Source of the DNA: Octopus vulgaris
Taxonomy: Eukaryota
Length of the DNA stretch: 64,000 nucleotides
Direction of reading: 5' to 3'
NCBI GenBank assembly: GCA_951406725.2
Contig: OX597833.1
Location: 25,234,001-25,298,000 of the forward strand
This document shows, piece by piece, positions 626-62,737 of this stretch. Position 1 is the first letter of the stretch, and each line of letters begins with the position of its first letter. The notes beneath the pieces were generated by a model. The model was not told where the DNA came from. It did not search any database and saw only the letters and a program-made list of their open reading frames with translations. A program made the position numbers and the translations under genes.

Positions 626-819
626 TAGCTATTTTTAACAAATTACGCAACCAAACAATGTTAATAGGATGGGAAAAATAAACCACAAATACGTAACAGA
701 ATAGATTCGCTTGAACATTATTGATTGATTTTCGTTCGAAATTTTATATTCAAAATTTCTCACATGAACACATCGATTGACGTGACTTTTTATATGCAGG
801 CATATACACTACATGTGTA

Positions 820-830
820 CAACTCATACA

Positions 831-866
<36 letters not shown>

Positions 867-1142
867 ACGTGCGTACACACATACATACATGCATGCCTAC
901 CTTCATACGTATGCACATATATATGCGTATATATATGCATATGAGCTGATCTACAGATGCACACATGCGTCCACACATACGTACACAAGTACATTTATAA
1001 ACATATGTGCATGCTTGCATACATAATGCCTACCTACCTGCCTACCTATCTATCTACCTACCTACCTACCTACCTACCTACCTACCTACCTACCTACCTA
1101 CCTACCTACCTACATACATACATACATACATACATACATACA

Positions 1143-1176
<34 letters not shown>

Positions 1177-1220
1177 CATACATACATGAATACATACATG
1201 CATACCTGAATACATACATA
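820..1220. repeat. Compound (TA)n/(TACC)n/(TACA)n microsatellite
   Basis: Direct reading; explains the overlapping PTYL/HTYI ORFs. Confidence 0.95.
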
Positions 1221-2563
1221 AAACATTTTAATGAAAATAGTCACGTCAGCATAAGGAACTATTCATCCGTTCGTGAGATGAATATTAACCTCTAAAACGT
1301 CTGCTATTAATGCTTACCTTGTAGAAAAATGAACCTTTTGAATATTTTTGATAAATGCAAAGGGGCTTTTATTTTTAGCTAATATCCTAGCAGTAATCGT
1401 AAATTGAAATAAATCTGATAAATAACGCGTCGATTACTACTACGTATATATCACGACAAGATTGGAAACCTGGGTCAGCTGCATCGTGTTAAAGAACTAG
1501 CAAATAAAACTCCAGTGGATTTCATAATGCATCAGAACATATACTAATTCTACAAAGTAAAAATTTTCCTTTTTATTATATGCAGGGAATGAAAGACCTC
1601 ATAGACGGTCTAAATTCTCAGTAACTCACATTTGTGTGGGAAGCAATTGCGCCAGGAAACTATGTACTCTGAGAAGAAATATGCATAATCAACGAGGAAA
1701 AGAGTATAGCAATGAAAGGTGATAGTAGTCTATATCGGTGGTATTTACCTAGGATCATATAAAAATGACTTCAGAATACAAAGAATTAAAACACAGCTCA
1801 CTGCAAGATTTAAGTAGAATTTTATTGTCTACATAGCTAAATATAGCGCACATCGAGGGAAAATATACTGATTTATATCCGAGATCATCAATATGTTGAA
1901 AAGCATGTAGCCCAATATAAAAGCGTTCAGCTATTGGACATTGTCTGTCCTGTGGTATTGTTTTGCAGATATTTGCCCACAAATGGTAGTATCAGAGACC
2001 TCCCAAAATCAGAACACACAAGGAAAATGGATTACCTCTCTCCGAAGGAATACTACCAGACTACAGGAAGACGTGTCATATTGAGATAATGTCATCATAT
2101 ATAATGCGAATAATGAATTCTGAAAGCCCACCGACAAAGAATTTCTAATAAACTATCCAACTTGTATAGAAACTTTAAACAATTTTCGTTCGCAAGTAAA
2201 ATTATTGCCCTTAGCATGATTCGAATGATACGTCAAAACCATTGTTATTGGAAAGTGTGTAGGACCATCAACCTTAAATATACATTAAACCTGTATTCAT
2301 AAAACGAAACGAAACACAAACAGTCTGTGCATGCTAATTTCGGGAGATAACCTCAAAACATCGATAACAGTTGACGACTTAGTATTATCTCCACTTCTCT
2401 GTCATAGTCATTTGCAATTGCCGCTAGGTGCTTGTTTAAATTCTCTCAAAGCAAAATTCATTCCATTACGCCAATAACATATCGTCTATACTGCATAAAT
2501 TTCTCGCTCCTTGATATGCGAATTCACGCATAGGTTGTTTTTGGCCGAATCAAGTGAACATAC

Positions 2564-3008
<445 letters not shown>

Positions 3009-20377: not shown

Positions 20378-21460
20378 AACTTCTTTTTCAAGAGAAACTT
20401 GAAAGAGTTGATGAGGGCTTGGCCAAAGAGGAAAGTGCCTGTCCTTAACCCTTTCAAACAGATCCAGAATACTACCTCTTTCGCTACAGCCACTAGACAA
20501 TTAAAGATTGCCTTCCCTACCGGGAAAAATAGGGCAGCGGTGCAATCTCCAGAGCGGATTCAGTTGATAGCCGGATCCGTCCTACACGCAAGATGCTGAA
20601 TGACTCCGACAGGTGCCCATTCACCCGAACAACGGAGCAAATGCCGCTGTACAAGGCAGCGATCCAACCACAGAAAACTTAACTGAAACCGGCTGCCCTG
20701 AGGACAGCCGCCAAATATTGATGTTCGACACTATCAAAAGCTTTAGGTTCATCTAAATTGATCAGAGCCCCACCCATACCAGTTTCGTTACCCACCCTCT
20801 CTATGATGTAGCGCATAAGATGGAGGTTATCGTGAACACTATTGTCTGGGATGGTGGAAGTTTGTGCCTTGTCAACCAGTTTGTCCACGACAAGCGCCAA
20901 CCTCTTGGCTAACAAATTAGCCAAAATCTTCAACTCTGCATTGAGCAGAGTGATGGGCCTGAAATACTTTATAAGGTCCCCATTTTTGGGTCCTTTCTCA
21001 GCAGTGCCACTACCCTTCGACAGACAAAAGTGAGAAATCTCCCATTTTGCTGCCAGGTGCAGTAGACGTTTGCTAAGAGACCCGCAAACAAGTCTGGCAT
21101 CGAAGTATAAAGCTCATAGAGCAGGCTATCCAAACACAGAGATCCTCCTCTCGTGGCGTCCTGTATTTCGGCGGCTATTATCGGCCTTTCGCAGCACTCT
21201 GCCTTGCTCGTCGAGAATCGTGGTAGGCCGTCCAGGTAGACACCGAAGTCTGCCCTGTTATCCTTCCTACCACACATCTGTTTCGGCTCGAACACCACGT
21301 ATAGTTTTGATACAGCAAAGATCGAATCGTGGCTTTATTGCCACGTTCCGCCTCCGCCATCGTGGCGCTTAGTGAACCTTTATTTTTGGTGTCGAAAAAT
21401 TGTTCAAGGGCTAGTCTGGCCGGCAACACTTCAGTTGCGATGCCTGTCCGAAGCGTCTCA
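20378..21460 (-). mobile_element. Tx1/L1-clade LINE ORF2 remnant with internal deletion
   Basis: RPITLLNAELKILANLLAKRL..Q..IPDNSVHDNLHLMR..LINLDEPKAFDSVEHQYL..VRVNGHLSESF, then jumps to C-terminal LVAVAKEVVFW; YADD region missing. Confidence 0.85.
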
Positions 21461-24845: not shown

Positions 24846-25039
24846 ATGTATATATATGCTTATATACGTAAATATATATTTCACACATACACATACATCA
24901 TTATTATAATTAAAATTATATATATATATATGTGTATGTTTTCAATGTGTACAAATAACAAGGAAAAAATAAATAGTTGCCAGGGTAGCAAAAATTCACG
25001 TGACAAAGATATTATATTCTACTTATAAAGGTAGAAATT

Positions 25040-26057
25040 CAAGGGTTCACTGAAATATTTTTGTATGACAAGAATAAATTAAGTAATGTAGTCAAACGCA
25101 GTTGTTATTCAAATCATTTATACTTCTAACAAATATTTCGAAAAAAGCATTGAGATTATTCCGGAGGGAATAAAAAGTGGTGTAAAACAATACAATCATC
25201 TCATCAGGGTATACCACCGTATATGATGAAGGGGGACGCTAGCAATTATTTTTTTAAAATAACCGTTGGTAGATTTAATGTCAGAGGTAATGCAGAGAAA
25301 GAGAAGGAGGAGAAAGAAAGAGATTGACAGAAAATTAAGAGTGGAAACATATAGTGTGATAGATGAATGTGAATTAAGTTTAAAAGCGTGGAAATAGATA
25401 TATGCAGTGGAAATTAAATGTAAGACGACAGTCAAGGTCGAATTTTATAGATTGGTAGAAATATCTTATAGGAACTAAAGGTATGTTTTTGCCAATATTT
25501 ACAACGATGAACGCGTTCTTTAAACGGGTTCACAAGAATATTCTTGTGCATATATCAGGTTCTCCGAAGCACATGTGAAGTTGCTTTCCACTGTGAAACG
25601 TTGCCCCTGTTTGAAGGAGAACTCTGATCTCACAATTAAATTGACGCATACCCCACAATTGTTTCTTCCGCATTTTTCTACTTACGGCTTCAGTGTTATT
25701 GTTGTGCATATTCAGTCTTGTGCTAGTAGGCTTTTAATAGATTTGGGCTGTCTCTTGCTTCTTATGATGGTGTGTATTTGGAGGATTAAGTTCATTCTGT
25801 GGTCCTTTTTTTAGTAGGGTAATGTTTTGAAGGATGGTGTCAAAGGCTTCAGTGGTAAGATGGTTGTGTGTGGAGATGTATGGTAGGTCTTTTGGTTGTA
25901 AATCTTTCTTTAATTTGGGGTGTCTGAGTTCGTGGATGTTGAGTTGTAGGACACGTTGAAAGCATATGTCAATTAGTGAAGGTGGGTAGTTCCTGGTGAT
26001 GAGTGTATCATTTAGTTCATGTAGACGTGTGTGACTGGTGCTTGCATTAGAAACTAT
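25040..26057 (-). mobile_element. Penelope-like element: RT C-terminus, linker, GIY-YIG start and pseudo-LTR
   Basis: Minus translation RLHELNDTLITRNYPPSLID..LPYISTHN..CGRNNCGVC..NFTCASENLIY; downstream CTGATGA (25201-25207) and CGAAA (25136-25140) hammerhead remnant. Confidence 0.8.
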
Positions 26058-26063
26058 AGTACA

Positions 26064-26410
26064 CTAGCAGTATCGCCCGGCGTTGCTCGGGTTTGTTTCG
26101 ACCCGCTGGAATTGGAATCTTTGAAAAGTAAAAAGTTTGCATTATGTAGCTTGTTATTCTCTTCAAGTGAACATTTTTCTGGTTGAAATACACCGAAAAG
26201 TGGCGACACAGCAGTGAAAAAATCGTAAAAAATTGGGATTTTCATAGAAAAAGCACCTTTTTGATGTAAATAATGTTTGGTGTTAACATGGTCCGATTTG
26301 AATTTTATCTTCTACGGAAGGAAGAGCAACCCTTCTTCTATCATACTCTCAATTTTGGTAAACTTGCGCCGCAGGGTCTCAGAGGAGATAGTGTTAGTTG
26401 AAGGTTACCA
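26064..26410 (-). mobile_element. Non-autonomous Helitron 3' portion
   Basis: Minus-strand end CTAG|T at 26064-26067 with hairpin GCCCGG-CGTTG-CTCGGGT (26075-26092). Confidence 0.7.
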
Positions 26411-55334: not shown

Positions 55335-56340
55335 GTGCGACGGTATTCTGATGCATGCGCGAAGCGTTGTAGTATCGATTACATTACAAAAATGTGCTTT
55401 GCAGCAATTCCACAGCTGATAGCCGGGAATGTCAACGTCGAAAGCTCTGATGAGACGCTATATCAATTGACCGACCATCGAGGTCGAGCGCTCGCGGCCA
55501 AAGCCTCACCGGTAAAATATCAATCGTAGCCAGAGACTGAGAACCCATGGTCTAGGTTATGATCGACTATGCCGGACCGGAGAACGGTGCTTAGTATCTA
55601 ATCGTGATTGACAGCTGTAAAAAGTAGCCAGAAGTATGCAGGTAAGACAACTTTAAACTTCCTATATGAACTGTGTGTGCGATATGATGTTCCAGACACG
55701 TTAGTTTCTGATAATGGAACGCAATTCTCGGGGTATGAATTAAAGAAATTCTGTAAAATGCATGTGATAAAGTATATTTTCACTCCACTCTACCACCCGA
55801 GACCAAATGGGCATCTAGAAAGATTAGTGGACTTGTTCAAAAGAGTGTTAAGAAAAGCTTTGAACGAATTAAGTGACGACGAAATACTAACAAAATTTTT
55901 AAGGGTATATAGAGTAACGCCCAATCCAAGTACAAATTCAAGAAAATTACTCGCGGAGTTGATGTTCGCGAGAAGGATAAGATTTATGATAAGTTATTGC
56001 CAAAGTAAAAAAAAGGATGTAAAGGAAATACGAAATATGCAACGAAATATTTCGAAGTATGAAAGTGCATTTTAAAACCTACAGAAATGGTAAAGACGGC
56101 TGGAATGATGGTCAAAAACAAAAAAAAAAAAAAAAAAAGGAAGTATGATTAATCTAATTAAAGGATCACGCTGGGAACATAAGAGACACGTAAATCAGCC
56201 AAAGAAGAGACATACCGAAGAACGGAGAGAAATTCTAATGAATGTATTTTTTGATGTAATCGATGTCCCGGCGCCGAAAGTAATGGAGTTCCGCAGAACT
56301 AGCATGAGAAAACCTTGAGATAAGGCCCAAGTGAAAAAGA
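55335..56340 (+). pseudogene. Gypsy/Mag (K02A2.6-like) integrase remnant
   Basis: LQQFHS..PGMSTSKALMR (H2C2 region), PWSRL.IDYAGP, VPDTLVSDNGTQF, YHPRPNGHLERLVDLFKR, YRVTPN; stops and deletions. Confidence 0.9.
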
Positions 56341-61080: not shown

Positions 61081-61744
61081 ACATGTAAATGTAAAAAAAA
61101 TACAAACTAGGACAAGAATGTGAAACATTTAGAAGACGATACAAAAAACACGGATGGGACATTCGAAGCTTTCAATCTTCAGTCAAGAACCGGATCATCT
61201 TCGCAATTTCGGCTGATTAATCTTGAGATTGCTCCGATCTGGCCAGCCCCAAAGGAAAATCTAAGCCAAGCGCATTAGATTCCTTGGAAGAAAGCCTCGA
61301 ATGTATACAAAACAAAGACGGAAAAACGGACGATGTTACACGAGTAAAAATACAAAAATACGTAAAAACAATAATGATAGCACGAATAAGATACAAAAAT
61401 ACGTAAAAACAATAATAATAATAAGAAAAACAGGACGTCACAGACAAGCGTCTTTTCGACAGGACGAGTAAATTTTTGAGCTGGCGTTAGAAAAAAGCCT
61501 TAGGGCTACAGAGAGACAACAAAGTGTGTCTTGCCACAACGGCTGCTGTCCACGAAGAGGCCAGCAATCAATGGCTAGTCACGTGAGGGAAAGAGAGAGG
61601 AAAAGAGGGACAGGTGAAGAGAGAAAGAAGGGGAACAAGGAACAAAGGAGGAGGAGAAGAGAGAGTGAGAGAGAGAGAGAGAGAGAGAAAGAGACAGAAC
61701 AAGTGGAGTGCAAAGTGTGAAAGGCAGAGAAATGTAGGAGAGGG

Positions 61745-61748
<4 letters not shown>
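61081..61748 (-). mobile_element. Non-coding retrozyme-like element, copy 1 (5'-truncated)
   Basis: Reverse complement homologous to 62065-62694; bounded by (TA)n. Confidence 0.75.
61172..61233 (-). ncRNA. Candidate rearranged (non-circularly permuted) hammerhead ribozyme, intact core
   Basis: GCAAUC|UCAAGA-UUAA-UCAG-CC-GAAA-UUGC...UCUUGA-CUGAAGA-UUGA; stem I 6 bp, stem III 5 bp, stem II 4 bp. Confidence 0.6.
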
Positions 61749-61781
<33 letters not shown>

Positions 61782-61786
<5 letters not shown>

Positions 61787-62694
61787 CCGAAATTGCTAAG
61801 ATGATCTGGTTCTTGACTGATGACTGAGGGCTTCGAATGTCCCGTCCTGTGGTTCTTGTGTCGTCTCTGTGGTGTTTCATGTTCTTGTCCATGTCTGTAA
61901 TTATTTTTACTGTTTACCTATATAATCGGCGGCTACGTATCCACAATTGTCCTTATACGATAAGTATATTTTTTCTCTAGCATTGATACGACTCTTAATC
62001 TGTCTCTTTCTCTCTCTCTCTCTCCCTCCCTTATTCCCCTTCCTTTCTTTCCCTCTCCATCCGTCTTCCCCCCCTTCTACGTTTCTCTATCTCTCTCACC
62101 TCCAGCCCCCTCGATCTGTCTCTTTCTTCTCCTCCCTCGTCCACCTTCTCTCTCTTTTCATCTGTCCCTTTCTCCTGTCTTTTGTTCTCACGTGACCGCT
62201 AGCCGCTGTTGAGCGCTCTTTTCGTTCCAGCAGCCGCCGAAGCAACACGTATTTGTTCGTCTCCCTGCGGCCATTAGGCACAACTTCATAAGCCAGCCCC
62301 ATACTCAACTCGTCCTGTCGAAAGACCCTTGTCCTACGTCCTGGTTTTGTTTTGTTGTTTATTTTTTATTTTTACCGTTATTGTTTTTACGTTTTTGTAT
62401 TCTTATTGGTGTCACGTATTCTGTATTTTTGTTCGTGTACTTCGTTCGTTTTCCGTCCTCTTGTTGTATACATTCGAAGCTTTCTTCCAGGGGATCTAAT
62501 GCGCTTGGCTTAGATTTCCCTTGGCGGGCTGCCCATATCGGAGCAATCTCAAGATTAATCAGCCAAAATTGCTAAGATGATCTGGTTCTTGACTGATGAC
62601 TGAGGGCTTCGAATGTCCCGTCCTGTGGTTCTTGTGTCGTCTCTGTGGTGTTTCATGTTCTTGTCCATGTCTGTAATTATTTTTACTGTTTACC

Positions 62695-62700
<6 letters not shown>
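61782..62700 (+). mobile_element. Non-coding retrozyme-like element, copy 2, more than unit length (776-bp period)
   Basis: Direct repeat 61782-61924 / 62558-62700 with one mismatch; no credible ORF; (TA)n on both sides. Confidence 0.85.
62542..62603 (+). ncRNA. Candidate rearranged hammerhead ribozyme, G12-to-A variant
   Basis: AGCAAUC|UCAAGA-UUAA-UCAG-CC-AAAA-UUGCU...UCUUGA-CUGAUGA-CUGA; upstream repeat keeps GAAA at 61789-61792. Confidence 0.55.

Positions 62701-62737
<37 letters not shown>

Follow-up and report, generated by a model that had tools for sequence, protein, structure and literature searches.

A retrozyme-like, non-autonomous Penelope-type element with a split, non-circular hammerhead motif in the genome of Octopus vulgaris

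Animal non-LTR retrozymes, as characterised in the available portions of the two sources that describe them, are defined by a type I hammerhead and have units of 51-972 bp (PMC7229834; bioRxiv 10.64898/2026.07.22.740005), and for other animal retrozymes a circular monomer has been shown (PMC7229834). The element analysed here, from a 64,000-nt stretch of Octopus vulgaris DNA (the window), shares with them non-coding tandem units that carry one hammerhead each, a GC content below 45% and a unit length within that range, and in both cases dependence on Penelope-like elements (PLEs) and a circular intermediate have been proposed. It departs from them in that its predicted hammerhead is a split, non-circular permutation, which type I descriptors miss. 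It also goes beyond these accounts of non-LTR retrozymes, in that (TA)n targeting, a fixed internal start of reverse transcription and a pile-up at the cut site can all be read from the genomic copies of this one family.

There are equally clear likenesses to the Naiad and Chlamys elements (MRC1), for which the accessible text of PMC8557442 describes a (TA)n target, strong 5' truncation, pseudo-LTR tandems and multicopy head-to-tail insertions. Unlike autonomous Naiads, the octopus element has no open reading frame (ORF) of its own, no detected DNA similarity to them and no 30-40 bp tail, a feature that is optional in Naiads; and it is young (1-5% divergence), whereas all Naiad reverse transcriptases (RTs) found in this genome are broken. 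Naiads are described in the same text as being without canonical hammerheads, and their 3' UTRs as often containing an 'HHR_core' or 'HHR_half_core' that fits no descriptor.

Hammerheads of types SGC and CSG come from metatranscriptomes and metagenomes, with none from a known eukaryote genome in the available part of PMC10085705, where block C is assumed to be uninterruptible and the published non-circular hammerheads keep CUGAnGA beside stem II. The octopus motif has the same cyclic S-G-C block order, all of the core nucleotides, a short linker between stem I and stem II, and a helix that connects these two stems on their other sides, but its block C is opened at A9/G10.1, where two additional structures (P0 and P0a) are located, with the ends of the RNA lying at P0's tip. 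The Poseidon PLE of Anolis, as far as the accessible text of PMC11167929 describes it, resembles the octopus element in an RT start internal to the RNA and in an endonuclease preference for AT-rich DNA. The Poseidon start is not homologous to its target, whereas that of the octopus element lies on a target-like UAUAUA; and cleavage by the Poseidon ribozyme is traceless in RNA-seq, whereas the cut site of the octopus element is imprinted on genomic 5' ends. A literature search, with most subscription papers outside its reach, returned nothing that links non-circular hammerheads to PLEs or describes a core opened at A9/G10.1.

The locus and its family

The locus contains a 143-nt direct repeat (61782-61924 and 62558-62700) with a period of 776 and a single mismatch, G61789/A62565. 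With unit numbering in which u is the window position minus 61918, the insertion comprises 1.18 units: a 5' partial unit of 137 nt (u640-776; 61782-61918, plus strand), which is the pseudo-LTR, and then a complete, non-coding 776-nt unit (61919-62694, plus strand; GC 44.8%, longest sense-strand ATG ORF 47 aa). The 143-nt repeat finishes with TATATA, and without these 6 nt its element-specific part measures 137 nt. The 5' repeat begins ATCAGCC, 9 nt past the predicted cut between 62548 and 62549, a start that the (TA)n flank leaves uncertain by about 2 nt. Such flanks lie on either side of the insertion (61748-61781 and 62695-62713), and within it there is a TTTACC-TATATA-body junction, whose internal TATATA (61919-61924, plus strand) would be the annealing site for a nicked (TA)n target. 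An earlier, sequence-only reading of the window had described the repeat with its period, mismatch and start, the junction and the (TA)n setting correctly.

That reading also identified the mismatch as CpG to CpA, with which we agree; it is a change of G12 to A in the GAAA core of the 3' ribozyme copy (62565), G being ancestral and A present in 2 of the 174 unit copies examined. The cleavage site of the 3' repeat had been considered intact. This is true of the triplet, but the mismatch strikes G12, and the ribozyme of this copy is predicted to be inactive. The 5' partial unit retains blocks G and C' with an intact GAAA, without the cleavage block and without the 5' strand of stem II, and since the only other copy carries the G12 change, the locus is predicted to be unable to release a monomer. 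Both units with G12 changed to A (window 62565 and L187) occupy the 3' position in 913-nt copies that begin at u640; the two copies are independent and belong to different sublineages. Inheritance of the change from the source locus was rejected, as shorter copies with the same change would be expected and none was seen among the 174 units.

Elsewhere in the window, an older and separate insertion of sister subfamily B (61085-61741, minus strand), about 74% identical, also contains the ribozyme motif, in intact form. Two fragments were recognised by eye, one similar to a LINE-type RT (20679-21334, minus strand) and one to an LTR integrase (55608-56075, plus strand).

Across the 2.8-Gb genome, exact pattern counts gave 584 unit ends and 114 head-to-tail junctions, and therefore about 470 insertions of subfamily A. 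In 30 of the 30 best loci the 3' end lies at TTTAC(C) and is followed by (TA)n, with scattered 5' ends, which supports the suggestion that priming occurs on the internal UAUAUA at a (TA)n target; the same fixed end and a (TA)n-like 3' flank recur across a set of 82 insertions (L182 and L225 were checked individually). Eighteen of these 82 exceed one unit, forming partial tandems and pseudo-LTRs. The first 100 junction matches represent 87 loci, eight of which carry more than one junction: two in six of them, three in another and five in the last. The unit, with no ORF beyond 47 aa and arranged in tandem arrays, has the non-coding tandem structure of non-LTR retrozymes, and a fixed 3' end with 5' truncation, pseudo-LTR partial tandems and a (TA)n target are features of Naiad-type PLEs. 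We have very little doubt that this is a Penelope-type family, and the earlier view of a retrozyme-like, non-coding Penelope-type element is upheld: it is a new, retrozyme-like, non-autonomous PLE with a split, non-circular hammerhead.

Further non-coding families with the same split ribozyme were observed: family E (L011, about 2400-2800, minus strand), in which an inverted 5' copy is present, family F (L041, about 700-1400, minus strand), family G (L116, 3250-3050, minus strand) and family H (L157). The stretch L045:250-1756 joins a unit of subfamily C, on the upstream side, to the 3' end, junction and unit of subfamily B, and is either a chimeric two-subfamily tandem or a nested insertion. 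In the L179 array, u319-410 of the third unit has been swapped for a short stretch of other sequence.

Fold and topology of the hammerhead motif

The motif contains every core base of a hammerhead, but the cleavage block comes first, GAAA second and CUGAnGA last (S-G-C). Block S (62542-62554; this and all other parts of the fold are on the plus strand) contains a stem III strand, the AUC triplet, the predicted cut and a stem I strand; block G (62560-62573) contains the 3' strand of stem II, GAAA (with the G12 change at 62565) and a stem III strand; and block C' (62587-62599) contains a stem I strand and CUGAUGA, with no stem II after it. The bases after A9 form no stem II, and the strand before GAAA pairs instead about 20 nt upstream of the cut, where the 5' strand of stem II (62527-62531), with G10.1 as its first base, is supplied from upstream rather than following CUGAnGA. 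Because the closing helix P0, whose 3' strand (62602-62616) comes after A9, pairs back to a 5' strand (62470-62484) upstream of hairpin P0a (62487-62524), which directly abuts G10.1, the core appears to be opened at this point. An interaction helix between stems I and II is formed by 62533-62539 and 62579-62585. Judged from these pairings, the hammerhead is not of type I, II or III but a non-circular permutation with the core opened between A9 and G10.1.

In an alignment of five subfamilies and 11 distinct rows, which amounts to few independent lineages, stems I, II (with the upstream strand) and III are 98% paired and show two-sided changes, as did none of 500 shuffles; in stem II such changes occur at three of the five pairs, and 98% of cells are paired. 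The stem I-II interaction helix is the weakest element, being 62% paired in A1; by eye it is clear, at 6-9 bp, in families D and E and in seven metagenome matches. A descriptor finds the split arrangement in families A-G and in 0 of 3000 shuffled units, family F (one copy) being ambiguous for stem II; family H, which has a mismatched stem I, was read by eye. A contiguous stem II would have only 0-2 bp in families A-E and G, the partner strand lying upstream. Most of 13 folded elements have the P0/P0a arrangement, seven of them at a shuffle fraction of 0.02 or less, and the structure of the 146-nt 3' fragment alone is not unusual (z 0.96). An Rfam scan returned 38 matches at E<=1, all under the gathering score and none to a ribozyme family.

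The core CUGAnGA, GAAA and NUH are found in the family, with the exception of the 3' copy at this locus, in which G12 is changed. The S-G-C order and the lack of a contiguous stem II set the motif apart from the type I hammerhead of non-LTR retrozymes, and its interrupted block C sets it apart from the non-circular hammerheads, in which at most 1-2 nt separate A9 from stem II. Type I and type III readings of CUGAUGA...GAAU and an HDV-like reading, all considered by eye, were set aside, since the strands concerned do not give stems I and III. We also discarded a contiguous stem II built from CUGA or GGCU after A9, which does not hold in subfamily C and whose bases are paired in P0. We consider it probable that the permuted hammerhead is active.

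Cleavage, template and proposed cycle

The set of 82 insertions used for mapping 5' ends is unselected and consists of every insertion among the first 100 unit-end matches. Their 5' ends fall at u631-650 in 18 cases, including four at u631 itself, which directly follows the predicted cut, and in no case within the 20 nt before the cut (u611-630). Under a constant-hazard model about 2.8 starts would be expected at u631-650 (p about 1e-9 for 18, calculated by hand), and there is no comparable excess at other TA-like positions, where the hazard is 0.0024 against about 0.018 at u631-640. Fifteen of the 18 pile-up copies are 127-146 nt long, which matches a run-off product that begins at the internal start and stops at the cut. 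Ten of the 18 starts sit at u637-640, 6-9 nt past the cut, so that trimming or microhomology has to be postulated. Pattern counts for reverse-strand matches point the same way, although the anchors sample differing mixtures of subfamilies: they gave 68 at u619-644, 21 downstream and 6 upstream. Sister subfamily H has the same 5'-end boundary. The sequence-only reading had envisaged one full round followed by a stop near the cleavage site, and had named random 5' ends as grounds for abandoning this. A stop close to the site is borne out by the pile-up, but the other 64 of the 82 5' ends are scattered, like ordinary PLE truncation, and a full round with a stop is one outcome among many.

The pile-up indirectly supports cleavage of the RNA in vivo. 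In the Anolis PLE, according to the accessible text, hammerhead cleavage proved unnecessary in vitro and RNA-seq yielded no reads terminating at the site (PMC11167929), and eight of nine predicted retrozymes did not cleave in the account given in the available part of bioRxiv 10.64898/2026.07.22.740005.

Units of the same insertion were compared at 43 loci with overlapping units, those with multiple junctions being picked on purpose and L179 being excluded for its internal rearrangement. They differ at 43 of 22,948 columns (0.19%), against 1.93% between loci; in several arrays, private variants are common to units of the same array; and at 30 polymorphic sites every covering unit carries the minor allele whenever it is present (124 of 124 cases). 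Because units are so alike within insertions and share their minor alleles, each insertion derives from a single unit copied repeatedly, and the earlier proposal of copying through a single-unit template is thereby sustained. Passage through the cut site is free of indels in 156 of 156 copies, with three substitutions (duplicate loci being kept in), and this lack of indels favours covalently continuous RNA over template jumps. The template was, we believe, rather more probably than otherwise a circular monomer, which would account for both observations.

In proposing a mechanism we need to account for the structure of the family, its fixed 3' end, the 5'-end pile-up, the identity of units within insertions and the conserved fold, all of which are seen in the DNA itself, and from these we infer a cycle of catalysis, ligation, a circle and a helper. 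A locus with two intact ribozymes would be transcribed, and cuts between u630 and u631 would free a monomer, part of which would be ligated into circles. A PLE endonuclease would then nick (TA)n, the nicked end would anneal to the internal UAUAUA and RT would start at TTTACC. Where the RNA has been cut, RT would run off its end at about 146 nt. Closed RNA would let RT continue past both the site and the junction, and the resulting copies would be 5'-truncated, 1.x-unit or multi-unit; about one in five passages would end at the cut site. Taken as a whole, the reading of a non-coding Penelope-type element with a split, likely cleaving hammerhead, copied from a circular monomer by a borrowed Penelope-type enzyme, seems to us reasonably likely.

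The explanation that survives best beside it, although we think it unlikely, retains cleavage by the ribozyme and dispenses with the circle: the templates would be linear multimers from tandem source loci, and the locus in the window would come from a dimer in which the upstream ribozyme alone had cut, a template that would yield the same insertion. Arrays exist as possible sources, the longest reaching 5.5 units, and the ratio between rounds is inconstant, since about 100 of 470 loci pass one junction and 8 of 87 a second. The rate of stopping at the cut site is also similar in round 1 (15 of 73) and in later rounds (3 of 16 at risk, this locus among them), and because stops recur on later rounds, linear multimers or a ligation scar are needed besides the circle. 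However, paralogous units in a linear source should diverge and arrays should only shorten, yet units are ten times more alike within insertions than between them; private variants are shared across the units of an array, and 0 of 124 minor alleles are position-specific. Linear inheritance would require very fast gene conversion.

It is improbable that the motif has ceased to cleave and that the pile-up reflects the start of transcription or a structure that blocks RT. Such a view would fit the non-standard core at A9/G10.1, the absence of the pseudoknotted core from MFE folds and the position of most stops, 6-9 nt past the cut; but the boundary matches the site predicted from the core to the nucleotide, no excess of 5' ends occurs at about u695, the point at which RT coming from the 3' side would encounter the structure, and across eight families of this genome and seven metagenome elements the core bases are conserved despite variation at N7 and in the stems.

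More improbable still is a linear, cut-to-cut monomer held as a nicked circle, on which RT jumps repeatedly from the 5' to the 3' end. This would account for the single-unit bottleneck and for an equal stop rate per passage, and there is a local jump exactly at u631 in L262, where a copy of u636-655 lies ahead of an exact u631 start, as if RT had run off the cut end and then jumped back. Template jumps usually leave small gains or losses, however, unlike the 156 pass-throughs, none of which has an indel. A local tandem duplication or an ordinary TG...CA LTR element, to which a direct repeat flanking a unique middle might point at this one locus, is refuted by the identical junction at 114 dispersed sites, by direct repeats that range from about 30 nt to several units, and by ends at ATC and ACC in (TA)n. 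The variable repeat length, these ends and the (TA)n flanks likewise set the family apart from LTR retrozymes, for which fixed-length TG...CA LTRs, a type III hammerhead and a 4-bp target duplication are characteristic.

Candidate helpers and Naiad relatives

The element was likely copied by a borrowed enzyme. The sequence-only reading had suggested the Penelope RT remnant at 25000-26100 of the window (minus strand), a candidate that finds no support: the remnant, of Neptune type, is broken, has a C-terminal endonuclease and shows no DNA similarity to the element. In its 3' region, CUGAUGA is followed about 65 nt on by CGAAA, possibly a decayed type I hammerhead. No intact Naiad helper occurs among the best 150 of 2778 and the best 138 of 744 candidates, and distant Naiad lineages may exist beyond these; in the scored candidates the longest open frame in a Naiad-like match is 325 aa, and all Naiad-type RT matches are broken. 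Nor did 50 RT-bearing loci, with the best candidates scored, yield an autonomous element with the same 3' end, the DNA matches there being unrelated neighbouring insertions.

One young, intact PLE family was found, with a 753-aa open frame, a C-terminal GIY-YIG with a cysteine linker, copies that are 97.5-99.3% alike and 3' ends in (TA)n. Its sequence suggests the Neptune type, a label that we assign from the description in the available text of PMC8557442; the 25-kb remnant has 42-46% amino-acid identity to it. The 3' end of this family bears a weak U-rich/UUAC likeness to that of the element. It is the best helper candidate and the only one found, and we name it tentatively, with doubts that outweigh our confidence. 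At its loci (L133-L138), which have (TA)n targets, a further ORF of about 340-370 aa lies upstream and the structures include tandem and inverted ones; no hammerhead core is evident in the 3' UTR.

The published Naiad_Ovul motif has 169 matches in this genome, and a Naiad_Ovul-like family here has the split fold downstream of its RT (L101), with wholly different stems. A metagenome set of 80 Naiad-type loci was reduced to 57 by dropping 23 with a 3' region shorter than 300 nt or with N; seven of the 57 3' regions have the split-SGC form, two have CSG and 48 gave no match, with 0 matches on the reverse strand and in 285 shuffles. The final 420-600 characters of about 44 published Naiad consensuses, with names taken from file order (PMC8557442, from the accessible material), were read by eye and with no control. 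The split form is clear in eight, from two octopus, three coral, box jellyfish, acanthocephalan and crustacean Naiads, and weak in two; six nematode consensuses have a clean CSG form and a spider has an SGC-like form, and the remainder show no such form in these 3'-terminal characters. In the accessible part of the supplement to PMC8557442, bivalve and hemichordate Naiads have another conserved 3' motif instead of a hammerhead, and Naiad-1_Movir a twister-like motif. Several Naiad-type proteins (P0027-P0040) contain a UCH ubiquitin-hydrolase domain (PF00443, precomputed).

A broader proposition, which we think possible but to which we would give slightly less than even chances, is that, in animals as different as ctenophores, corals, cephalopods and nematodes, many Naiads and their non-coding riders rely on active non-circular hammerheads, including those opened at A9/G10.1. 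These would cut germ-line PLE RNA and lead to a circular template, and rolling reverse transcription of this template would produce pseudo-LTRs and partial tandems; in the present case a Naiad-type rider would be using a Neptune enzyme. If true, this would fill a stated gap, that of Naiad hammerhead cores fitting no descriptor, would give an animal-genome home to non-circular permutations known from environmental RNA and DNA, and would add a topology that the six-permutation scheme excluded. The genomic copies of this family provide genome-scale evidence, at the level of sequence, that a PLE-type hammerhead may cut RNA that is actually reverse-transcribed and that partial tandems probably pass through a one-unit template, which bears on what PLE hammerheads do and on how pseudo-LTRs arise.
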